60,600 nucleotides of DNA from a virus (IMGVR_UViG_3300016657_000065:1-60600); one strand, 5' to 3'; shown: positions 2,929-58,453, numbered from the stretch's first letter. The notes: generated by a model not told the origin, from the letters alone. Numbers and translations: made by a program.

Positions 2929-3426
2929 ATGGTAACTACCAAATCCCTCGTAAAAGATTATCTCGACGTACTCACAGTTGAGGATGTCAAGATGATTAAT
3001 CGCTGGACTAGTCATGCAGATGTGCCACTCGACAAATTATTGGCTTTACACAAAAAAATTAAAGACATCGAACCGACTGAGTCGCTAACAGTCTACCGTG
3101 GCATTGGACACGGCCTCTCGTATCAGGAAAAGATGGATCTGTTCGAGAAGAAGTTCTTTATGTACTTCTTGATAAAGGGTGTGCAGAAAGGCTATGTTTT
3201 CACTTACAGCACCCCCCGCCCACTTTCGTTCACAGACGACATCCAGACAGCGCGGGCCTTTGGTAAGGTAATCGTGACTACTGATTTACCACGCAGCCTA
3301 CGTTACATTCGTATCACTCAAGCTTTCTGGGAAGCTGTTAACCAGATCGATGCGGCCTCATTATTCCAAGAGATTATTCTGTTAGAAACTCATCGTGAGA
3401 TCAAGTATACCGTACTGGAAACTTAA
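2929..3426 (+). CDS. Putative R-S-E-type ADP-ribosyltransferase
   Basis: LTVYRG, PLSFTDDIQTARAFG and FQEIILL occur in the order of the ART R-S-E motifs; start placed at ATG 2929. Confidence 0.6.
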   Translation: MVTTKSLVKDYLDVLTVEDVKMINRWTSHADVPLDKLLALHKKIKDIEPTESLTVYRGIGHGLSYQEKMDLFEKKFFMYFLIKGVQKGYVFTYSTPRPLSFTDDIQTARAFGKVIVTTDLPRSLRYIRITQAFWEAVNQIDAASLFQEIILLETHREIKYTVLET

Positions 3427-3445
3427 TTCAAGCAAAAAAAAAAGA

Positions 3446-3530
3446 CCGGCATAATTACCCTGTCCCCAACGGGTCAGGGTAATTATGTCGGCATAGTAAA
3501 GCGGCATAAAGAGGCCCCTGACAGAGCCTC
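3446..3530. terminator. Convergent terminator hairpins flanked by CGGCATA/TATGTCG
   Basis: Inverted repeat CCGGCATAATTACCCTG / CAGGGTAATTATGTCGG, an upstream A-run and a second hairpin GAGGC/GCCTC. Confidence 0.75.
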
Positions 3531-22433: not shown

Positions 22434-23939
22434 TTACTGAAATTCTGCCATGAATGGTGCTACGGCAGGGTCGATCTCCGAAGGTTCGTCGGACATCCAG
22501 TTGTTGAAGGTAGACACGCATGGCTTCGAGAGCGACAGGTTCTTTGACAGTTCCCGTGGTGCTTCAAAGTCAAACGCACTCTTGTGCGGCAGTAGACCCA
22601 TAGCGGCATCAGCAGTGTACTCATCCAACAGCAACATGCCATTCAAGGCATCGCCATCGAAGTCAGCATTGTAGCCACGAACGATCAGGATGGACATGCT
22701 AATGGTCGGATCACTTACATCTGTCTTCACCCGTTTAATGAACAACAGCTGCATCGAAGCGCGTTCCAGTGATGGGTTACGCTGCAATGTAAACGGGAAG
22801 CCATCGTACTTAGTGCTATTAATGACCTCGTTCATGAGTTCATCCAACAGCGGATGGTATCGACGGGAGTGCTCATCGAGCAGACGGCGAGCAGTGATCG
22901 GCGTATAGCCGCGTTTAAACAGTTTGTTCACCAAGAACGGCCGGAAAGCAATCAGACCAACAGACCAGGGGATTTCGCAATCCAAGTAGTTATGCGGGCC
23001 AGTGATTGACGATACAACAGCACGGAAGGTAAAGTGGCAACGGAAACCATAGCGCTGCTTACGGAAGAGACCTTCCTTGGGTGCGAACAGTTCCTTGTAT
23101 TGCTTGATCTGGTATTCAGCCAGAAGTGCCAGCACTCTCGCAATACGCCCTTCCTTCACATGGGTAGCGTAGCCTTTACTCGGTGTGTCAATACCTACCA
23201 CAGTACGAATAGCATCCAAGGCACCAAGGATGGTGTAGTCCACGAATGGGCCCATGTTGCTTTCTTCTACCACGAACAATGTCTTGTTCGGAAGAGGTAG
23301 GTGGTTGCAGAAGATAATGTTGCGGTTTTCATTGATGAACGTAACGAGTTCCTGCACCTCATCACGTTTGTTCTTCTCTTTCATACCGACATGGGTTACC
23401 AGGATATCAAAGAGAGCATCAAAGTTGTTAACGAAGTTGTTATAACCACGTTCCAGGCCAGACTCCCGCATCACTTCTTCTACCTTCAATAGATAGTTCA
23501 GCGGTTTCTTGAATGGATCGTAGCGCGGATTGGTAAGCCATTGCAGGAAACTAAAGTCACTACGGGTAAAGACTTTGTCAAGCAAAGCCCATACTTCCAA
23601 GTTCATCAGCTTCGCTACGCCATGTGGTGCACGCAACCACACGGTAGGTTCGAGGTACTCGTCAATCTGCGACTTCACTTCTGTTTCACAGATTGGACAA
23701 ACAGCACCACGATTGGAAGGACCACTTGTTGCTTTACATTCGCAACTGGGGACGTTGGTTAGAAGATCCCCATTATAGGTGGTGTACAGCATCTGGTTGA
23801 GATAATCGATATCGCGCGCACTAACGATATCGAAATCATTGACAATGAACGGGGCTCGAGACAACCCGCGTACAAAACGGTCATCGTGATCTACCAGTTC
23901 AAGGAAAATACCTGTATTTTCTTCATGATGCGCGCCCAC
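22434..23939 (-). CDS. rpoC: Non-virion RNA polymerase beta' subunit, N-terminal catalytic part (phiKZ gp55-like), uninterrupted
   Basis: YNADFDGD catalytic motif; QRNPSL; N-terminal CxC..CxxC Zn site. Confidence 0.92.
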   Translation of the reverse strand: MGAHHEENTGIFLELVDHDDRFVRGLSRAPFIVNDFDIVSARDIDYLNQMLYTTYNGDLLTNVPSCECKATSGPSNRGAVCPICETEVKSQIDEYLEPTVWLRAPHGVAKLMNLEVWALLDKVFTRSDFSFLQWLTNPRYDPFKKPLNYLLKVEEVMRESGLERGYNNFVNNFDALFDILVTHVGMKEKNKRDEVQELVTFINENRNIIFCNHLPLPNKTLFVVEESNMGPFVDYTILGALDAIRTVVGIDTPSKGYATHVKEGRIARVLALLAEYQIKQYKELFAPKEGLFRKQRYGFRCHFTFRAVVSSITGPHNYLDCEIPWSVGLIAFRPFLVNKLFKRGYTPITARRLLDEHSRRYHPLLDELMNEVINSTKYDGFPFTLQRNPSLERASMQLLFIKRVKTDVSDPTISMSILIVRGYNADFDGDALNGMLLLDEYTADAAMGLLPHKSAFDFEAPRELSKNLSLSKPCVSTFNNWMSDEPSEIDPAVAPFMAEFQ

Positions 23940-24014: not shown

Positions 24015-25898
24015 TTACTGGCCAGCGAAACGGCTGAAACCGTTCATGTTGGTGAAACCACCCTGGGAGCCAACACCAGCCATCTGGCCATACTGCATGC
24101 CATGGGTCGGTGCAACCATACCGAAGTCGTAGAAGTTGGCTACAGCACGAGTCTGCAGGCCCACTTCAGCGTGCGGCAGGCGCAGCTGAGGCATCAGGCC
24201 GCAGTCGATGCAAGCCTGGGTCAGTGCTTCGATGAAGTTGTGCTCGAACATGTTACGCACAGCAAAGCCGGTGTAATGAACGTTCTTCACACGATCCAGG
24301 ATGCGCTTGCGGATTGCCAGGCGCAGATCTTGCGACTTGCCATTGATGTCCAGGAAGGAATCGGACCATTCACGAGCAACCATCGGATCGGTATCACCGA
24401 AGGTGTTCAGGATGGCCAGGTAGTCGAAGTCAGCCACGTCACGGCGATTGCCTTCAGCATCAGTGTAGTAACCCTGATGGATACGGTTGGCCAGGGAACG
24501 AATCACTTCACCAGAACCGTTGCGCTCGCTGTAACGTTTAGCGAAGTTACCGTTGGTCAGCTGGTTAGCTGCTTCCAGGATACGACGCTTAGCGGCTTGA
24601 TCGCCAGCGCCAGCCAGACCGAACTCGTACATCCACCAGGTGGAGGTATCGCATTCCGGAATGTCGATGGAGGTCGACATGTAAGGACGAACGTAAGTCT
24701 GCATCAGCAGATTGAAGTCTTCCTGACGGAACACGTCGGACGAGGTCGGGAAACGACTGCCGAAGCGGGTAGCGTTGCCTTCCAGGTTGGCATCGATACC
24801 GATGGCGCCAATGTCACGCAGGTTAGCCGCAGCATGCGACTGAGTACGCGGATTGAATGCCATGGTCCATGCGTTCTGGTTGCGCAGAACGAAGGTGTTG
24901 GCCAGAGCCAGCAGTACCATGCCCGGAGTCAGCAGCTTGCGGGAATGCAAGCTGGTAATCACCAGGTTCGGCACGTACAGGTAGTTGGCTTGCTGCACTT
25001 GACCGTAGGTCATTTGCTGCTGCACCTGCGGGTACCAGGCCAGGTCAACGTAGCCAGTAGCAGAGGTGATGACGTCTTCGGATGCGAAGCCGAAGGAGTC
25101 GTCCTGCTGCATGCCTTGCTGACGGTTCTGTGCCACCAGGTTCATCACGAAGTCGGAACGTACCGGACGACCGGCAGCGTTTTCGATGTGATGATCCGGC
25201 ATGGTCACGCTGGAGATCAGAACCTGGCTGGAGGTATCCACCTCAGCGATGTTGATGTCGTGGAAGCCCGGTTGATTGGTTTCAACAGCCATGGCGGAAG
25301 CCTGCATGGCGGTAGTAGCCAGTTCACGGACACGCACTTCATCGTCCAGTTTCAGATCAGCCGGTACCACGGAGGCGCGGCCGGAGAACAGACGGTTGGT
25401 GCTGAACAGACGGCTCAGGTGCTGATGTACAGTTTGCTGCATCACACGGTTGTAGGCGTCACCCACAACGCGCTGCACTTGGTAAGTCTGGCCTGCTTCT
25501 TGACGCTGGATCGGAGCGATCGGATCGATCGAACCTTCCATGATCAGGATGTGGTAGCCCACACCAGCAGCTTCTTGGCCCGGTACAGTACCGACCACGG
25601 CCAGCACAGAAACATTCAGCTGCGGGAAGTCAGCGACATCCATCTTCACAGTCTGGTAGGCGAAGCCAGTGTCGCCGTTCTTCAGTACCGGTTTGATGGC
25701 TTCATCGAATGCACCGAGGACGGCGCCAGCCGGGCCACGCGGTACACGCGGGGTGATGGACTGACCGATGGACGACCAGTTGCCGCGATCGCGCTTCGGT
25801 GCGCTGTAGCCGAAGTCGGCTTGTTGTTGCTGGCCAGATGCTTGGCCACGTTGTTGAGCTTGGGTGTTGCCGGTCGGCACTTCACGGTCGATAGACAT
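24015..25898 (-). CDS. chmA: Chimallin, the phage nuclear shell protein
   Basis: 627 aa, strongly biased codons, directly upstream of nvRNAP beta'-N; disordered Q/G-rich termini; RIHQGYY and DFDYLAILN motifs recalled from the family. Confidence 0.85.
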   Translation of the reverse strand: MSIDREVPTGNTQAQQRGQASGQQQQADFGYSAPKRDRGNWSSIGQSITPRVPRGPAGAVLGAFDEAIKPVLKNGDTGFAYQTVKMDVADFPQLNVSVLAVVGTVPGQEAAGVGYHILIMEGSIDPIAPIQRQEAGQTYQVQRVVGDAYNRVMQQTVHQHLSRLFSTNRLFSGRASVVPADLKLDDEVRVRELATTAMQASAMAVETNQPGFHDINIAEVDTSSQVLISSVTMPDHHIENAAGRPVRSDFVMNLVAQNRQQGMQQDDSFGFASEDVITSATGYVDLAWYPQVQQQMTYGQVQQANYLYVPNLVITSLHSRKLLTPGMVLLALANTFVLRNQNAWTMAFNPRTQSHAAANLRDIGAIGIDANLEGNATRFGSRFPTSSDVFRQEDFNLLMQTYVRPYMSTSIDIPECDTSTWWMYEFGLAGAGDQAAKRRILEAANQLTNGNFAKRYSERNGSGEVIRSLANRIHQGYYTDAEGNRRDVADFDYLAILNTFGDTDPMVAREWSDSFLDINGKSQDLRLAIRKRILDRVKNVHYTGFAVRNMFEHNFIEALTQACIDCGLMPQLRLPHAEVGLQTRAVANFYDFGMVAPTHGMQYGQMAGVGSQGGFTNMNGFSRFAGQ

Positions 25899-25979
25899 TT
25901 GCGTTATTCCCTTCAAAAGGTGTGGTTAATCGTCGACGATTGATTCAGTTACTGGATATACCAGGCTGTGATCATGTTA

Positions 25980-26003: not shown

Positions 26004-26126
26004 GAATGCTGGTTGAGGTATGGTTTTTACCTCATATCCGCTATATCTCCTTGGGGGTGACCCAGAGGATCGAGAGCGATTATGTACTCTTGCATACTAT
26101 AGGGATACAACGTGTAAAAAAATACC

Positions 26127-26555
26127 TTAACTCTTTTCCCTAGTTTGTTGCAGTACTTTAAAAGGTAAGATTCCGATGTGCGTCAGGTGACTAACGCTTC
26201 GTTCCTTCATGTTATTCCACGCAGGTAGTAAATCTTTACATCTTTCCGTCGACTTAGGTAAACCGATGGCTGTGGTAACATGGTGCTTGGTGAAATCAAT
26301 CAGCTGGCAGATAACGTTGACTTTGTCGTAGTTGCCTGCAGCGATGGCTGCTTCAACGGCATCAAGGATGATTGCTGTACAGCGTGTGTGTTTCGCTGTA
26401 GACCAAATGTTGGCTGTATTCAGTAACGACTTGACTTCATCGCACAGCTCACTATGGGAATAGGCGCTATCACATTCGGCTGATACCTTTACATCCATCA
26501 ATGCTGCGGGGATTGGAATATCCACCTGATCCAATAGAAACTTCGTATCCATCAT
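26127..26555 (-). CDS. Hypothetical protein
   Basis: 142-aa ORF with AAGGAG SD. Confidence 0.7.
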   Translation of the reverse strand: MMDTKFLLDQVDIPIPAALMDVKVSAECDSAYSHSELCDEVKSLLNTANIWSTAKHTRCTAIILDAVEAAIAAGNYDKVNVICQLIDFTKHHVTTAIGLPKSTERCKDLLPAWNNMKERSVSHLTHIGILPFKVLQQTREKS

Positions 26556-27743: not shown

Positions 27744-29885
27744 TTAATAGTAATCTGACACGAGTACAGGCAGGTTGGCACCTTTCTGTGTAGAATAAAC
27801 ACCCAGTGATTCCAGGATGTGGTAGAACACGGTACACACATTATACATCATGCCGCGAATATCCATGGCATCCATGATTTCTTTTGGAATGCCATTGTTC
27901 ATGCTAATAACTTCGCGACTCAGGATAATGGAACCCAAGTAGTTCTTATTGTGACGGTTCATCCACGCGGCCAAACGTGCGGCCAATTCCTGATCAGCCA
28001 TCCCTTTCAAGTATGCTTGAGTAGCTGCCGGGGTGTCTGTAGTCAGAGAGATACGAATACCGTCGTATGGTGGTGGCGGGCACGGACCATACTTCGGTTC
28101 GAATACTTCTTTCCACAGCGTGTAGTTGGTGTACGGCGATTCGGTTTCCGACTTAGTGTAGGATTCAGGTACGTTGATCTTGGCACGACGGAAGTAAGAA
28201 ATCTCACCCGCTGCAATTTCATCACGCACACTGCGCTCCATATCACCAATAGTCTTTAGGACTTCCGCAATCTTGATCTTCTCGCCTTTCACGATAGTGT
28301 ACATGATCTCTTCCATCATCTGCTTGGCACGCTTATTAATGCGTTCCGGAGCATTAGACGATTTCATGTGCACGCCTTTGATCTCTGTCTTATAGTCTTT
28401 AAAGACGTTACCTTCTTGACAGGAGATAATGGCATAGTAGTGTTTGGTCATCTGGGTAGCTACGAATACGTCGAACTTGAATTCGTTCTTCATCGCTACC
28501 TGATGGATACGCTCAGTCACTACCCCAAAGTTTGCCGACATGATGGCAAGAATGTGGGTAATGGCTTGCGATGCCAGGAAGATCATTACTGCCGCCACTG
28601 CATTATCGTGATCGCTAAACCCCAACTTACCATTAGTCCATACCACCCAACGCTCTACGGTAAAGATGGTGGAGTCAGTATCTGACGTAATGGCTACTTC
28701 ACGCACCATAGTCGGCAGATGTGCCAGCGATGGCGGTAGGTTGGAAGTCACGAAGAAACAGCGAATGAAATCACCGTACTCCATGATAGTGTTAGCGATG
28801 TTATTAGCGGTCGCCACAACACGTTCGTATTTGTCAGTACCCTTGATATCGTTAATGTGCTGCAAGCCACGGGTTTCTTCAGCGCAGACCTGCTTAGCCA
28901 AGTTAACGAAGTCTTCAGGAATACTTTTCATCACAGCATCAAGATCAGTACCTTCCGGCATGGTAGGTACTTTCATTGCCAGCTGTAGAATGAACTTACG
29001 AACCATGTCACCGTTATACAGCGAGATGCTATACAGGTCTCCCGTATAGAGCACCGCTGCACACTGCAAAGGTGTCAGTAGTCGAATAAACGACTTGATG
29101 TGGTTCATGGCCTTAACACTACGCCAGTATTCACGGCTACAGCGCACAACCATTTCAATTACCTGGTCATGGGTCGGCGCTACTAGCTGGAACTTCTCCA
29201 TTACGGCTTGGAGTTGTGCATAGTCTGTATTGTTAACAATGCTCACGATATTGTTCAGCGCAATATCTGGACGATGGTAATGGCGATTACCAGCTACCAT
29301 ACGTTCATTGTTAGCATTGCCGTAACCAGAAGTAATACGGCAAGTCGAGGTCAGGGTAGAATGAGCCGTCTTGTTAAAGAGCGGAGTACCGCCCGAGTTA
29401 TGGGCACCCGACAACGAGTTGTTATTGATCTTCTTGTTAGCCTGGTTGTTCTTCTCAATAACGTAAGTAACTTTGTCACCTGCCATTTCGGCACGGAACA
29501 TGGCTTTTTTGTGTACGCCACGCTTCTTTACGTTATCGTCAATGAAGGTTACATATGGCGATGCTTTACGATACGGATGTGCATAGGTAGTCAGGGTGCC
29601 GGCAATCAACTCACGTTTCTGAATAGACTCACCCAGATAACCCATCAGGGTGCCGACTTTCTTTTCACGATCACCATTAGGACCGCGTTCCAGGTACATT
29701 ACATCCGGATCTTTTTTCTTTTCTTGTACTTTCTTTTCTACGAAAGCGCGAATGGCTTCTTCCGTATGGCCAGTTGCAATCTTGAGATACGCTACCGCAT
29801 CTTCAATGTAGTGTTCAACTGGACGAATATCTCGTTTATAGCTGTCTTTTGGGTTAACAAACACCCCAGTGACTGGATGACTCAT
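27744..29885 (-). CDS. Family-B DNA polymerase, polymerase-domain subunit (phiKZ gp50-like)
   Basis: Motif B KKINNNSLSG, motif C TSDTDST, TKHYYA, EIKGVH. Confidence 0.88.
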   Translation of the reverse strand: MSHPVTGVFVNPKDSYKRDIRPVEHYIEDAVAYLKIATGHTEEAIRAFVEKKVQEKKKDPDVMYLERGPNGDREKKVGTLMGYLGESIQKRELIAGTLTTYAHPYRKASPYVTFIDDNVKKRGVHKKAMFRAEMAGDKVTYVIEKNNQANKKINNNSLSGAHNSGGTPLFNKTAHSTLTSTCRITSGYGNANNERMVAGNRHYHRPDIALNNIVSIVNNTDYAQLQAVMEKFQLVAPTHDQVIEMVVRCSREYWRSVKAMNHIKSFIRLLTPLQCAAVLYTGDLYSISLYNGDMVRKFILQLAMKVPTMPEGTDLDAVMKSIPEDFVNLAKQVCAEETRGLQHINDIKGTDKYERVVATANNIANTIMEYGDFIRCFFVTSNLPPSLAHLPTMVREVAITSDTDSTIFTVERWVVWTNGKLGFSDHDNAVAAVMIFLASQAITHILAIMSANFGVVTERIHQVAMKNEFKFDVFVATQMTKHYYAIISCQEGNVFKDYKTEIKGVHMKSSNAPERINKRAKQMMEEIMYTIVKGEKIKIAEVLKTIGDMERSVRDEIAAGEISYFRRAKINVPESYTKSETESPYTNYTLWKEVFEPKYGPCPPPPYDGIRISLTTDTPAATQAYLKGMADQELAARLAAWMNRHNKNYLGSIILSREVISMNNGIPKEIMDAMDIRGMMYNVCTVFYHILESLGVYSTQKGANLPVLVSDYY

Positions 29886-29939
29886 TTTACACCCCCGTTA
29901 GTCTGCACAGTATACAGCGGATGTGTATTTTTTAAATAG

Positions 29940-30022
29940 CGGCATATAAGCAGGCTTTCGCCTGTGGTCTAAAAGTTAGCAAAAAAAAAAAGAACCAGAG
30001 GAGCTTGGGAGGACTCCTCTGG
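29940..30022 (-). terminator. Tandem minus-strand terminators
   Basis: CCAGAGGAG/CTCCTCTGG stem with long U-run (29981-30022), then CAGGC-GAAA-GCCTG followed by TATGCCG (29940-29964). Confidence 0.75.
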
Positions 30023-30690
30023 CACGAGTTAAATGCACTTCACATGCCCCATAAGCAGTAGTTGGTGCTGGACAACACCCCATTGTACGCTAAGTGCGCA
30101 TCCCGAGTTACCGACAAGGCCACCCTACTTCCGAAGGTTCAGTGTGGACAGTGCCGATTAACCAAGGTCTCAACGTACAACAGGCTGCAGTCTAAACTGG
30201 TCACTGGCTATAAGACGATTTGCGTGCGAATACCGACGCTTCCGACGGCTTATCGCTACGTCAACCGTGGTTTTTTTGGCCGGCTTTCCGCCACCTAACC
30301 ACGACTGCCATTACCCAGTTTATTATACAACTTACGTGTTAGTCTTCACGTCGTACCGTTTATTATCTGTTCACAGGGGACTAGACTGAGACCAGATAAA
30401 AGTAAAACCAGATCGATTAGACGATAACTCTTCGACCGGGGAGTACGTGCTCCTATGACATGTTACCATGTTTCGTCTTTATTTATATACCGATAGACTC
30501 GTCAGATAGTGTCGGTAAAGGTACTAAGCACTCGTCGCCTGCGTGGGCGACAAAGCGACGAGTGCTGTTCCCTTTTGAAGGACGCGGAGACATCATGCGT
30601 ACGGGTAACCAATCCGTTGTGGCCTGAACTGCTAAAACGAGGAAAAGCAATCAATGGCCGGATGTTCTCCAAATGATGGAGATGATTGGT
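30023..30690. ncRNA. Candidate large structured non-coding RNA (~670 nt)
   Basis: No credible ORF; many helices including a perfect 12-bp stem (30527-30566) and a multi-branch junction (30419-30478); bounded by a terminator and a promoter-like motif. Confidence 0.5.
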
Positions 30691-30708
30691 ATTTTTTTAC
30701 GCACTACA

Positions 30709-31116
30709 TTAGACCAGCGAAATTTCCAACTGGTCAAAGCCATTACTGATGAGCGCATTTCGAATAGCTGGAACATCAGATACATTCACGCCAGAGACCA
30801 CTATGTTAACCCTGGCGGCTTGGATCTGGGTGATTGTGTCCGGATTGATCCAACCAGTGGAGAGGATGGTTTCTTGGCCAGAGTCCAGACGCACTTTGAT
30901 ATAAGTGTAATCATCGGGATTCGGACTAGAACCCGCTGGCAGATACGGCATTAGCTGCTGGTGTGCCGCAGTAATGTCTGCAAACAGTTCAGCAGTAGCA
31001 CGATCGAACTCAGCTACGACAGTCAGGTTGTTAAAGCGATTACCCAAGATACCGATTGCTTCCGGCCACGGCTGAAAGCTATACGACTGCAGTACTTGGA
31101 AGTTAGTATTGGACAT
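30709..31116 (-). CDS. Conserved phiKZ-family protein (gp49-like position)
   Basis: 135 aa, GGAG SD, last gene of a tight operon. Confidence 0.7.
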   Translation of the reverse strand: MSNTNFQVLQSYSFQPWPEAIGILGNRFNNLTVVAEFDRATAELFADITAAHQQLMPYLPAGSSPNPDDYTYIKVRLDSGQETILSTGWINPDTITQIQAARVNIVVSGVNVSDVPAIRNALISNGFDQLEISLV

Positions 31117-31127
31117 AATGACTCCGT

Positions 31128-31871
31128 TTAATCTTCTAAGTGAATCAGTATCAAGGTACCATTCACCAAAGAGAAGTTCTTGATTGCAAAGTTGGTGTAG
31201 AACTTACCATCTTCGAAACCACCGATTTTATATTTCTTTAGGGCCAAACAATAGTTTAAGGCCATGTGCTTCATGTGGTAATGTAGCACGTCACTAAACA
31301 TGGTGTAGCCACATGAGAAATCAAGAGACCCCAACAATAGCTTGGTGGTTCTGACTTCTTCTACTCGCACATCGATGGTGGGCTCATTCAGGCAGATCTC
31401 GTCGAACATATTAACAATGCCTTGTTCGATGAGGCTGATGAGTCGCAGTTTATCCTCAGCGGAGAGCTTCGACTCATGGATGAGCTTAACTGGGGTCAGG
31501 AATACTTCTTGGTAATTAGCAAAACCGACCACATCAATCAGCGATACACTCACACAATATCGACTATCTACGGCTTCCATTTCAATTATCCCTTTATTCT
31601 CGTCTATGAACTTAGCAACAAATACTGGACCAAAGTCACTACTTACAATCGTGGTTTCCACGTAAGTTAAGAAGCGCCGCATAGTTTTGCTATGTTGCGT
31701 GATCCAATCCTGATCTTCACCAGGACCCATGATTTCTGCAATGTAGTTTGAAAGCGCTACTGATAAGGCAGTGACATGGCCATTAGCCAACAGATGCAGA
31801 TACTCTAGCAAGGCATGCATGAGGGTATCTGGATCAATTGGCTTCCAGCGACTAGTGTCTATCTGGTGCAT
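31128..31871 (-). CDS. Hypothetical protein
   Basis: 247-aa ORF in a tightly packed operon. Confidence 0.7.
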   Translation of the reverse strand: MHQIDTSRWKPIDPDTLMHALLEYLHLLANGHVTALSVALSNYIAEIMGPGEDQDWITQHSKTMRRFLTYVETTIVSSDFGPVFVAKFIDENKGIIEMEAVDSRYCVSVSLIDVVGFANYQEVFLTPVKLIHESKLSAEDKLRLISLIEQGIVNMFDEICLNEPTIDVRVEEVRTTKLLLGSLDFSCGYTMFSDVLHYHMKHMALNYCLALKKYKIGGFEDGKFYTNFAIKNFSLVNGTLILIHLED

Positions 31872-31874
31872 AGG

Positions 31875-32270
31875 TTAATCCTTGCCTTTAATAGTGCATA
31901 CAAAACTCTCGTTGTTAAGGATACGTAAATTGCTAGCCTCTAAATCTGGGTTAAGCATGTACCGGATTACTACGTCATTTAACGCTTCCTGTGCTGGCAT
32001 GCCTGAGGCATACAACATACCCGAGGAGAATGGTGAGAATCCAAGTGAATCGTCCAATACACCACCGTCAATTAGGTCATCCATTACTGCAGCGATCCCA
32101 CTGATATCTGAAGCATACGGGTCACTCAGATTAAACATCTGAATGGAATTATTGAACATGTGGGAGAGTACTGCCTCGCGACAGAACTCCCCGACATGCT
32201 CGTATGCCGCATTGAAAAAATCGTTTACTTCAGGTGGTAGTGGGAACAATGTGCGAACGCCATTGCTCAT
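31875..32270 (-). CDS. Hypothetical protein
   Basis: 131 aa, ATGA coupling. Confidence 0.7.
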   Translation of the reverse strand: MSNGVRTLFPLPPEVNDFFNAAYEHVGEFCREAVLSHMFNNSIQMFNLSDPYASDISGIAAVMDDLIDGGVLDDSLGFSPFSSGMLYASGMPAQEALNDVVIRYMLNPDLEASNLRILNNESFVCTIKGKD

Positions 32271-34532: not shown

Positions 34533-34796
34533 TTAGTTACTTCCAGCAAAGCGAGCATCACAATGGTTTCGTCTCGTTCTGAACTCCCCCTTTAGGAGTT
34601 GATTAAGACTGTTTGCCTTTTGGCAAGAAACCCAGACTGTTTCTATAATCAGTGCTAGGCGGGCCGTCTTTACGGGCTCGTAAGCAATTACCCAGTAAAC
34701 AAAGACTGTATCAAGTGATGCGAACAATGCGATGTAGAGGAAGCATACTATTGCTACAATCCACATAACACTCATCCTGCACGTCTTCAGTTTCAT
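34533..34796 (-). CDS. Small predicted membrane protein
   Basis: Hydrophobic stretch VMWIVAIVCFLYIALF; overlaps the upstream ORF. Confidence 0.4.
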   Translation of the reverse strand: MKLKTCRMSVMWIVAIVCFLYIALFASLDTVFVYWVIAYEPVKTARLALIIETVWVSCQKANSLNQLLKGEFRTRRNHCDARFAGSN

Positions 34797-36975: not shown

Positions 36976-36982
36976 TTGAAGC

Positions 36983-37021
36983 AAAAAAAAAAGAGTGGGG
37001 GCAACCCCACTCTTTATGACG
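36983..37021. terminator. Bidirectional terminator
   Basis: A-run, then AAAGAGTGGGG-GCAA-CCCCACTCTTT, then ATGACG, between convergent genes. Confidence 0.8.
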
Positions 37022-37022
37022 G

Positions 37023-37958
37023 TTATTTAATTTTCAACCGATAATCCTTCTCGATCAATCCAACTGTATCGCGATTGGATCGGCAACGCATAAACGGATT
37101 CCACCAGAACAGGCCATTCTTCTTGCGTTTGAAATGACCGCGCACCATGTGGGCACGGTGTTCGTTTCTTAAAGAAGCAGCCTCACGGAAGCCTCGTTCA
37201 ATATCGCTTATGGACGTATATTGCTTTTCTTCTCGATAAATGTCAAGAATGTGGTATTCATACAACGACTGGAAATTCTTCGGCACCATGCCAAGTTCTT
37301 TCTTGGACGGTGTATATTTAACACTAGCCACGTTACTGACATTAAGATACAACAGAATTTCTCTAGCAGCGACCAAGAGAATCGAGGCACGCTCTTCTAG
37401 TTGTTCAAGTGTACCTGCTAGTTCTGGGTGCTTAGTGTAGTCACCGTATATTTTTCGATAGACCATTTCACCACTACTGTCTCCTGTTGTTCCTTTGACG
37501 AATCTGAGTTCGATCAGTGCCGATACCACCATGTTTTTCTTAGGAACATGGTAATTTTTAAGCAGTTTACTGTGGCCGGCGATTAACTTCATGTACTCGT
37601 TACGACTGTCAGAGTACACTACATGCATTATAAATGCATTTTCTTCATGGGGATCCTCTTCCAAAAGAATGCCGCCAGAGCTGTTTTCAATAAACACACT
37701 GCTGAATGGTAATTTAGATGCGTATTCATGCTGCAGTTCCATACGCTTATCCCTAGCTGCGTCTTCCTTTGCAAAGACTTCAATTAACGGCGATATTTCA
37801 CCGATCACTTGAGTACTGAGGTTCATGAAGTTTTCGGGCACTATGATCTTTTTAGCACCCATTATCCTGATCCTGAGTTGATTAAGTTCAGTTTTTGTGA
37901 TCATTGGGACGTGTAGAAAATTGTCCAGACTTTCGGCTACAGCTTGGGATACTAGCAT
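37023..37958 (-). CDS. Accessory protein with C-terminal RxHxxRGH..W motif
   Basis: 311 aa; HRAHMVRGHFKRKKNGLFWWNPF; visibly AT-richer than core genes. Confidence 0.7.
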   Translation of the reverse strand: MLVSQAVAESLDNFLHVPMITKTELNQLRIRIMGAKKIIVPENFMNLSTQVIGEISPLIEVFAKEDAARDKRMELQHEYASKLPFSSVFIENSSGGILLEEDPHEENAFIMHVVYSDSRNEYMKLIAGHSKLLKNYHVPKKNMVVSALIELRFVKGTTGDSSGEMVYRKIYGDYTKHPELAGTLEQLEERASILLVAAREILLYLNVSNVASVKYTPSKKELGMVPKNFQSLYEYHILDIYREEKQYTSISDIERGFREAASLRNEHRAHMVRGHFKRKKNGLFWWNPFMRCRSNRDTVGLIEKDYRLKIK

Positions 37959-40439: not shown

Positions 40440-40990
40440 TCCAAATCGAAAGGTATATAATAATGAATTTAAAAGAAAGAGTAGGGGGCTCCGCCCCCTA
40501 CGATTGTACTCGACGCTCCCGCTCCAGGGTCGGTTGCTCCGCTTACCCGACCCCTTCGCTCTGCGTCTGGATGTCGTTCGCTCGCTGTATTCTCTTCGCT
40601 CGTGTCGCTCTGCTCACTCGCTTCGAGGCTCGCTCTCTAGTAAAGTATTGCAAACAATAAACACTACGAGTAAAAAATTACTCGTAAGTAAATATCAAAC
40701 TTAACCTAAAGAGAGGGTATAAGTACCCTCTCTAGTTTATTACGTTAGCTTATGGTTTAGTATTTTTCATAATCCCTAAGGGGATAGAAAATACTAAACC
40801 GAATTCACTGGGTAGCTTCGCACTAGGTAAGTAGGATCACTTTAACAAGTGAAAAAAAAAAATAAAAAGAAAAAAGACGAGACTCGGCGAGGCGGCCCGC
40901 AGGCAGCCAGCATCGAGGTTGTCGAGGGGTGGGGTTATGGCAGTCATTTTTATTTGATTCAATATACCTTGCCTCATTCTTATGAGCATA
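40440..40990. repeat. Non-coding divergent region with (TC)GCT(C) repeats, palindromes and an A-tract; candidate replication origin or packaging site
   Basis: About 13 GCT(C) units in 40514-40635; inverted repeats at 40665-40686, 40710-40733 and 40754-40800; A-rich tract 40852-40875. Confidence 0.5.
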
Positions 40991-56389: not shown

Positions 56390-56491
56390 TCGATTCCCTC
56401 TATTTGAAAGTTGGCACTACTGCATAGCCTAGTCTTCGCGATGTAAAAAAATACAAGCAAAGGAGCTAGTACTCTCAGAGTCTCCACATTA

Positions 56492-57727: not shown

Positions 57728-58453
57728 TTACGAACGCAAAATAGCTTCAATACGTTCAGTACGATCAGCAGGCGATACCATTGCCGATACCACACCATCA
57801 CTAAAGTAGGAACCAGCCAACTTGTTAGTGGTGTTAGTAGCGGCGTATTGTACGCTCCTCAAGGTAATGAAGGCTGGCGGCTTTGCACGTATATCAGTCA
57901 GTGACTTCACCGTATTCCGATAGTACTTGGTGCGATCCTTGCTATCCCGCGCAATCAGCGACACAATCAGTTCGGTCACCTCTTGGTTGGTACCCACGTT
58001 AGCATCAGCATGATACTTAGCCGTGTTAAAGATCTTACCTAAGTCCATGTAGTCGATATACCAAGGCACTCGACCTTTCGAAAGGATCTCATCGTAAACA
58101 CGATAAGTCAGTGTATCCACTTTCACCAGTTGCAAACTAGGTGTAATGGTGCTACCTTTCTCGAAGAAGAACTCCAAATAGGTATCACCTTCCACATCGA
58201 TGCGGTTGGTTTCAGTGGGCGTCAACTGGATCATGGCATTGACTAGGGAGATTGCATAAAACTTATCCTCGACGATGTAGGCAATATGACCTACTACACG
58301 AGTATCTGCACCCAGCTGTGCCAAGCCACGTTCTGCAAAGCGCTCAGGACATTGAATCTTGAGGTCCTGTAAGGCTACCAGGCGGCCATCCGGTAGCTCT
58401 TTAAGGCAAGCGCGTACTCGGGCCGCATCGCGCACCATAGCTTCAGGTTTCAT
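57728..58453 (-). CDS. Conserved virion-associated protein (phiKZ gp176-like)
   Basis: 241 aa; GRVPWYIDY and NKLAGSYF motifs; synteny. Confidence 0.65.
   Translation of the reverse strand: MKPEAMVRDAARVRACLKELPDGRLVALQDLKIQCPERFAERGLAQLGADTRVVGHIAYIVEDKFYAISLVNAMIQLTPTETNRIDVEGDTYLEFFFEKGSTITPSLQLVKVDTLTYRVYDEILSKGRVPWYIDYMDLGKIFNTAKYHADANVGTNQEVTELIVSLIARDSKDRTKYYRNTVKSLTDIRAKPPAFITLRSVQYAATNTTNKLAGSYFSDGVVSAMVSPADRTERIEAILRS

Follow-up and report, generated by a model that had tools for sequence, protein, structure and literature searches.

What occupies the 823 nt between two replication-associated genes in the genome of a nucleus-forming jumbo phage? The stretch analyzed here, IMGVR_UViG_3300016657_000065:1-60600, is a 60.6-kb piece of a viral contig with an estimated completeness of 22%; at its full length of 60,600 nt it is called the window, and its source is a Chimalliviridae-like, nucleus-forming jumbo phage. 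Phages of this kind keep transcription apart from translation, and little of their RNA biology has been charted. The gap in question (29886-30708) is free of open reading frames (ORFs) and runs from the stop of the gene for SH3DP to the start codon of the DNA polymerase gene, both genes lying on the minus strand. The reading that we favor, with a probability of about 0.6, is that the gap is a minus-strand non-coding unit, which would be transcribed in the middle phase or by read-in from the SH3DP operon, cut by a hammerhead ribozyme between 30457 and 30456 and stopped by two tandem terminators.

The gap between SH3DP and the polymerase

The two genes that define the gap are:

27744-29885, minus strand: DNA polymerase gene, 713 aa (phrog_2927, E 2.6e-237), start codon at 29883-29885
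30709-31116, minus strand: gene for the SH3DP protein (SH3 fold domain associated with phage DNA polymerases), 135 aa (Pfam PF20287, E 1.4e-23, 83.3 bits; phrog_3235)

The linkage of these genes was reported in 2021, in a paper whose passages on the linkage do not mention an RNA between them (PMC7824862). The stretch between the genes is non-coding. A first-pass annotation made from the DNA alone had picked it out as the largest coding gap of the window, poor in ORFs and not AT-rich, and this holds. In a greedy ORF map of the window it is the largest truly ORF-free stretch (a nominal 670-nt gap elsewhere in that map is occupied by the ORF 57728-58453), and its GC content of 0.47 equals that of the genome. 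The longest ORFs within it have 78 aa on the plus strand and 56 aa on the minus strand. Ten small ORFs gave no PHROGs or Pfam match at E < 0.1; weak Pfam rows for small ORFs of the gap (E 0.19-0.35) were judged to be chance. Six-frame comparison of the gap with 44 related loci by tblastx returned nothing significant. Searched against the 60.6-kb record, the gap matched only itself; there is no second copy, which speaks against a MITE-like mobile repeat.

Folding of the two strands

Folded whole, over 734 nt and against 20 shuffles, the minus strand reaches -255.7 kcal/mol versus -212.2 +/- 7.1 for the shuffles (z -6.1, 0 of 20 as good), and the plus strand -216.9 kcal/mol versus -205.5 +/- 8.3 (z -1.4). 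The gain in minimum free energy (MFE) over shuffles is 43.5 kcal/mol for the minus strand of the gap, compared with 1.6-27.3 kcal/mol in 14 control values, a noisy set obtained from seven coding segments of 734 nt, on both strands, with 12 shuffles each. Since the minus strand folds well past its shuffles and the plus strand does not, the strand question is settled for the minus strand. The first-pass annotation had left the strand unresolved and had taken several G-U pairs to favor the plus strand, a preference that the folding contradicts. All six helices that it had named were recovered, including the perfect 12-bp stem that pairs 30527-30538 with 30555-30566. The gap is most likely a structured RNA made from the minus strand, with the following elements:

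30666-30682, minus strand: small hairpin TCTCCA/TGGAGA, in both the MFE and the centroid structure
30621-30659, minus strand: hairpin whose apical loop, UUUCCUCGUUUU at 30634-30645, is rich in pyrimidines; of the seven inner pairs, two are G-U on the minus strand
30527-30566, minus strand: perfect 12-bp stem, with 14 or more pairs on the minus strand and an alternative GTCGC/GCGAC pairing
30363-30403, minus strand: hairpin TTATCTG/CAGATAA
30266-30303, minus strand: hairpin CGTGGTT/AACCACG around a small GC hairpin
30071-30192, minus strand: long imperfect hairpin domain, in the MFE and the centroid structure

A candidate hammerhead ribozyme

This RNA most likely carries a type I hammerhead ribozyme:

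30450-30512, minus strand: candidate type I hammerhead; stem I of 4 bp, stem II of 4 bp with a 16-nt loop, stem III of 5 bp with a GUAA loop; predicted cut between 30457 and 30456, after the C at 30457
30488-30517, minus strand: 6-bp complementarity between UACCGA (30512-30517), 5' of stem I, and UCGGUA (30488-30493), in loop II

The core strand between stems I and II of a hammerhead reads CUGANGA. Here CUGACGA, at 30505-30499 on the minus strand, has the consensus letters of the Rfam family RF00163. After stem II come the GAAA strand, with GACGAAAC, and then GUC followed by A; an A-U pair opens stem III, and the base before the cut is not G. The Rfam alignment matches all consensus core letters (CUGACGAGUC, GACGAAAC and GUC before the cut). 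Three helices of 4, 4 and 5 contiguous bp surround the core, II and III closed by loops and I open. The helices at 30419-30478 and 30488-30517 in the first-pass annotation are parts of this region. That annotation had seen no hallmarks of tRNA, tmRNA, RNase P or introns, which is right for tRNA and tmRNA, neither of which was found in the window; it overlooked the hammerhead core.

A descriptor that asks for the core, for three stems of 3 bp or more, for the A-U pair and for a non-G before the cut matched one site in 121 kb of window, and two distinct, weak sites in 1.27 Mb of related loci. Markov-random sequence (46 Mb) gave 13 loose matches and none under a strict form of the descriptor, in which each stem has 4 bp or more and stem II opens with a G-C pair; the window site has both of these strict features. 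At least 117 IMG/VR stretches contain the same core pattern, some of them in arrays of 3-6. Model R2, a covariance model trained on 75 viral hammerheads (alignment A5), scored the window site at 38.2 bits, with E 2.9e-10 over 337 kb, values to be read with two limits: E-values of a home-made model are rough, and the training set was fetched by a pattern that the window site also fits, so that the score partly restates the match and counts for less in favor of the ribozyme. With filters off, the site is the sole R2 match within 29000-32000, and there is no second hammerhead. Twenty-nine held-out viral loci yielded 46 R2 matches of 28.6-71.2 bits, 12 of them at or below 39.2; the score of the window site falls within this range. 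The best non-hammerhead match in the 337 kb reached 21.9 bits; this match (L059, 751-809) was judged spurious, as it lies inside an ORF and is without stem III. Among 41 intergenic viral hammerheads, 28 are co-directional with both neighbors. Arrays of three to seven hammerheads within a few kb were seen on six IMG/VR contigs (L151, L158, L176, L184, L186 and L193).

The 6-bp complementarity may form either a competing hairpin or a stem I extension/loop II pseudoknot. At this place, about 40% of natural hammerheads are described as having a Watson-Crick pseudoknot that ties stem I to stem II (PMC3088659). An exact search with the hammerhead and stem III pattern for close relatives found none. 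The candidate belongs to a well-known class, and the phage family would be new for that class as far as full-text searches of the literature show: they turned up no report of a hammerhead in nucleus-forming jumbo phages. If the call is true, this would be the first hammerhead noted in the family within the reach of those searches, and it would place a self-cleaving ribozyme in a 0.7-kb non-coding unit beside core replication genes.

Signals that frame the gap

The two minus-strand terminators and the motif at 30688-30700 noted by the first-pass annotation are present, together with a further promoter-like copy:

30688-30700, minus strand: promoter-like motif GTAAAAAAATACC, lying at the gap's 5' edge and resembling the phiKZ middle-promoter motif
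29981-30023, minus strand: terminator T1, an 11-bp GC-rich hairpin (30023-29994), then a T run
29940-29964, minus strand: terminator T2, thirty bases beyond T1; hairpin CAGGC-GAAA-GCCUG (29964-29951), then CUUAUAUGCCG
29924-29933, minus strand: second promoter-like copy, AAAAAATAC, between the terminators and the polymerase, 40-50 nt before its start codon

The middle-promoter motif of phiKZ is given as 5'-AAanTTACc-3', centred about -24 from the start (PMC4666361); if this spacing holds, transcription of the gap would start near 30669. The promoter call is made by likeness to phiKZ motifs, and the source phage is only distantly related to phiKZ. AAAAAWTAC occurs seven times in the window against 0.99 expected, and 0 of 100 shuffles had as many; the copies at 26117, 30689, 40673 and 56446 stand in similar extended contexts. 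Terminator T2 is close to the intrinsic-terminator signature described for phiKZ, a hairpin followed by YTTATKYYGT (PMC10914365), and the spacers of relatives end in the same hairpin and TTATGCCG(T). The T run of T1 is one base shorter in one relative contig. Judged by their sequence, these signals apparently frame a minus-strand unit of ~0.7 kb and give the polymerase a promoter of its own. The better of the initial readings is the one of a structured, non-coding RNA with a minus-strand transcript framed by the promoter-like motif and the two terminators.

Three further copies of the promoter-like motif (GTAAAAAAATAC / AAAAATTAC) lie at 26117-26125, 40673-40681 and 56446-56454, all on the plus strand of a region that is mostly minus-strand. 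Downstream of two of these copies, ~480 nt hold one ORF only, which is unassigned and runs in the opposite direction (26127-26555, for instance, has no PHROG); such copies may mark further non-coding or antisense units. TATGCCG, found 15 times in the window against 6.4 expected, was considered as a late promoter and dropped, being part of the phiKZ-type terminator signature; three copies fall within 62 nt at 3447-3508 (minus strand).

The same locus in related phages

All available relatives are distant. The best database relative of the polymerase is that of Burkholderia phage FLC9 (50.6% aa identity); tblastn with the polymerase gave 304 records, all below 60%, and the 42 loci from IMG/VR and 37 from metagenomes are all at 51% or less. 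The gap itself had no relative among phages by blastn, and the SH3DP query found no close relative. Three contigs carry nearly the same DNA: X2 is identical to the window over 29996-30796, X3 has seven letter differences and one missing base over 29936-30152, and X4 has no differences over 30623-30774, a variation too small for covariation. X3 and X4 come from two drinking-water runs with fragments at 95-99%.

The position of the spacer is shared widely. The SH3DP gene stands directly before a long spacer in 20 of 21 representative loci, and the long SH3DP-polymerase spacers of relatives measure 235-804 nt; short spacers are also found (3 nt in L021, about 90-100 nt in phiKZ-like loci). The subclade of FLC9 and 12 IMG/VR relatives gave 13 loci, of which 10 were aligned end to end. 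In the consensus structure, which was derived from the same alignment as was tested, 28 of 93 pairs are changed on both sides and 98.3% of cells are paired, compared with 2-6 pairs and 38-46% when the partners are slid, and 0 of 500 shuffles reach the observed value. The RNA has many G-U pairs on the polymerase-sense strand. The FLC9-clade spacer RNA is clearly under structural selection, and a structured, covarying RNA is kept at the same locus in relatives of the window. Independently of the window, this spacer is a candidate for a new family of large phage RNAs, backed by covariation and found in culturable phages.

Between relatives, the spacer shows 62-64% nt identity, whereas the polymerase gene shows 79-80% nt and 85-86% aa. 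The spacer thus evolves faster than its flanks, so nothing in it aligns with the window: blastn, nhmmer (alignment A1) and tblastx found no similarity between the gap and the relatives' spacers. These spacers also match no Rfam family. What the RNAs of the window and the relatives share is position, strand, terminator type and possibly one pyrimidine-loop hairpin, and only these. As in the FLC9 clade, the unit of the window lies between SH3DP and the polymerase, in polymerase sense, with a terminator ~85-95 nt ahead of the polymerase's start; a further likeness may be a hairpin whose loop is U-rich and contains CCU. The FLC9-clade RNA differs in having no alignable sequence, no hammerhead and a shorter spacer (529-567 nt). 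Hairpins of this loop type occur at 1.94 per kb in the relatives' spacers versus 0.114 per kb in their flanks and are present in 14 of the 21 representatives, by a pattern drawn up with the data already in view. In the window there are 14 of them in 121 kb, and for 30621-30659 alone the support is weak (p ~0.1).

Several features of the relatives are worth recording in their own right. The FLC9 clade has an invariant box before the terminator that is complementary, over 13-15 nt, to a box abutting the polymerase Shine-Dalgarno sequence (columns 466-480 and 568-580 of alignment A1); no equivalent pair of boxes was found in the window. A 5' motif, UAAUGUUCUGAAGA, with a 4-bp hairpin bearing a GGCA loop, is common to three otherwise unalignable spacer lineages (L001/L008/L019/L026, alignment A4), and its hairpin has compensatory changes (GGGC/GCCC, AGGC/GCCU, GGGA/UCCC and GGGU/ACCC). 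In the Ralstonia phages RP31 and RP12 (L002/L041), the locus is arranged differently: Pfam does not identify the 148-aa ORF beside the polymerase as SH3DP, and a 437-nt ORF-free stretch (3010-3446) lies one gene further upstream.

Proposed pathway and rival explanations

We infer that the stretch gives rise to a transcript, which its ribozyme cleaves, and that the resulting pieces function as RNA. Transcription would start at the phiKZ-middle-type motif at 30688-30700 or read in from the SH3DP operon, run for ~0.7 kb through a well-folded RNA and stop at the tandem terminators (30023-29940), shortly upstream of the promoter-like motif that belongs to the polymerase. The hammerhead (30512-30450) would cut this transcript between 30457 and 30456. 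This would free the upstream mRNA or a 5' piece of ~210-250 nt, with the hairpin that exposes the pyrimidine-rich, anti-Shine-Dalgarno-like loop. The 3' piece, ~475 nt long, highly structured and close in size to the FLC9-clade RNA, would begin with a 5'-OH and end in a terminator hairpin, both of which would protect it. The likeliest roles of the products would be to uncouple the upstream mRNA from a stable non-coding RNA (ncRNA) and to pair with purine-rich ribosome-binding sites (RBSs). A pairing of the pyrimidine loop with such sites may occur; for the RBS of the polymerase it was not supported statistically, either in loop matching over 16 lineages or in body-leader duplexes. A broader proposal, which we put forward tentatively and consider doubtful as a whole, is that the SH3DP-polymerase spacers form an undescribed, fast-evolving family of large RNAs (0.25-0.8 kb), present in at least 20 sampled lineages and the window, with a constant anti-Shine-Dalgarno-like loop hairpin; the hammerhead might have been recruited for maturation in the window, and the RNAs might act in trans on translation or on replication timing.

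A number of results weigh against the reading of a self-cleaving, minus-strand non-coding unit. At the 200-nt scale its folding is not exceptional: z ranges from +2.4 to -4.2 in the gap and from +1.4 to -4.4 in flanking coding sequence, 30500-30699 on the minus strand (z -4.2) being the single outstanding segment, and at this scale the gap does not deserve its first description as helix-dense beyond background. The candidate hammerhead aligns to RF00163 (Hammerhead_1) over 30511-30451 on the minus strand with 20.5 bits (E 0.0098 in 201 nt, 0.059 in 1.2 kb), below the gathering cut-off of 34, and is not among the window-wide Rfam rows at E <= 5. The points are lost solely through the long loops and the short stem I; since one of 29 pattern matches in 20 viral loci, and one of six in an obvious array, reaches the cut-off, the latter is insensitive for this viral hammerhead class. 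Stem I of the window site consists of four mostly A-U pairs (stem I has at least 4 bp in 121 of 126 viral pattern matches). Stem II, of 4 bp, is of a length found in 6 of the 126, and the 16 nt of loop II compare with 10 nt or fewer in 123 and 20 nt or more in three. By nearest-neighbour energies, the local MFE structure, which contains a competing hairpin, reaches -26.1 kcal/mol, and the ribozyme fold, at -17.6 kcal/mol, falls short of it by 8.5 kcal/mol. The relatives' spacers hold no hammerhead, and the nearest polymerase, only 51% identical, is too distant for covariation in the window's own helices. Model R1, which describes the 5' domain common to the FLC9-like, L019 and L026 lineages, has no match in the window; it found only its four training lineages and one match at E 1.4. 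The fast evolution of the spacer accounts for this miss, and at 50% polymerase identity misses by nhmmer or R1 are expected to be uninformative. The sequencing runs listed as containing the stretch include none on record as RNA.

The unit could instead be a leader or attenuator that acts in cis on the DNA polymerase gene: the structured RNA and both terminators would determine how far upstream transcription continues into that gene, or the RNA would pair with its RBS, and it would have no separate function in trans. The order of promoter, structured RNA, terminator and gene is the layout of the 5'UTR-derived RNAs of phiKZ and 201phi2-1 as these are presented in PMC10914365 and PMC11512511, and the complementary boxes of the FLC9 clade would suit such a role, although their pairing is invariant and covariation cannot test it. 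In the window, the pyrimidine loop forms eight pairs with the polymerase RBS at -9.9 kcal/mol, the best in the row. Over 16 lineages, however, loop-RBS matching gave a permutation p of 0.087, with some start codons uncertain; duplexes between body and leader did not exceed shuffles in the window (z +0.72) or in the majority of lineages; and the polymerase has its own promoter-like motif copy downstream of both terminators. We regard a purely cis-acting leader as unlikely.

Rather improbable, in our judgment, is a largely functionless spacer, be it the remains of a gene or an insertion of selfish DNA that carried the hammerhead in, which would be transcribed solely as the trailing 3' end of the SH3DP operon. 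The low identity of the relatives' spacers would fit, as would lengths of 3-804 nt among SH3DP-polymerase pairs, all of them exceeded by the window's spacer, which alone has a hammerhead; the account of hammerheads in PMC3088659 also describes them as common in selfish elements. Against it stand the minus-strand folding past both shuffles and coding controls, the genome-like GC content, a sequence with neither protein remnant nor second copy in the 60.6-kb record, and above all the syntenic FLC9-clade RNA with its clear structural selection. A replication origin or structured single-stranded DNA (ssDNA) element, possibly with a primer RNA from the promoter-like motif, was the alternative offered by the first-pass annotation, and it appears very improbable. 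The gap does lie between two replication-associated genes and has a promoter-like motif followed by an A/T run, and no origin is described for the phage family in the literature searched, the phrase 'origin of replication' having 0 occurrences in a 2026 review. Yet there are no iterons, no tandem repeats and no AT-rich unwinding element, and neither GC skew nor gene orientation turns at the gap, which leaves the proposal without support; folding that differs so strongly between the strands, and the abundance of G-U pairs, suit RNA better than they do the symmetry of duplex or ssDNA, and a hammerhead makes sense only in RNA.

Comparison with known RNA systems

Features of known systems recur in the self-cleaving non-coding unit that we favor. 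With the RF00163 type I hammerheads of phage and prophage intergenic regions, as described by Perreault et al. 2011 (PMC3088659), the window site shares the core letters, three helices with an open stem I, the A-U pair, a C before the cut, a possible stem I/loop II pseudoknot and co-directional phage genes; it differs in its score below the Rfam gathering threshold, its long loop II and its short, A-U-rich stem I. It also stands alone, within a non-coding unit of 0.7 kb, and does not flank genes as part of an array. Hammerheads have been proposed to process long phage transcripts (PMC3088659).

With the ncRNAs that phiKZ and 201phi2-1, of the same phage family, make by premature termination, the window unit shares the known grammar of promoter motif, structured RNA, hairpin-TTAT-type terminator and gene, in respect of the motif by resemblance only (PMC10914365, PMC11512511 and PMC8244752). 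It is several times longer: the phiKZ and 201phi2-1 RNAs are ~90-210 nt, compared with ~0.7 kb for the window unit and 0.25-0.8 kb in relatives. Derivation from 5'UTRs by premature termination is reported in these accounts for 17 candidates in phiKZ and for 8 of 11 in 201phi2-1 (PMC10914365, PMC11512511). The ncRNAs published for nucleus-forming jumbo phages are short and without an assigned function. The Chimalliviridae literature that we searched yielded only short RNAs of the phiKZ type, and supplementary tables may list more. The window unit matches no Rfam family at its cut-off.

ROOL and GOLLD RNAs fall in the same size class and occur in phage-related DNA. The likeness to them drawn in the first-pass annotation does not go beyond size: neither gives an Rfam match at gathering or at E <= 5-10, and the window is without tRNA genes.

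Neighboring genes and further matches

Two more genes of the core block lie downstream of the polymerase:

24015-25916, minus strand: nuclear-shell protein gene
22434-23939, minus strand: RNA polymerase beta-like subunit gene

Elsewhere in the window, a match to the L20-leader family at 36981-37130 (minus strand; 27.7 bits, cut-off 58.7, E 0.25 window-wide) is probably chance. At 34585-34657 (minus strand) lies a match to RAGATH-12, below threshold with 24.8 bits against a cut-off of 75 and E 0.0035 in 241 nt or 0.89 window-wide. This RNA class owes its name to an association with genes that occur near twister and hammerhead ribozymes. The match has several of the conserved single-stranded blocks in common with the class and sits in a 217-nt gap between minus-strand ORFs.

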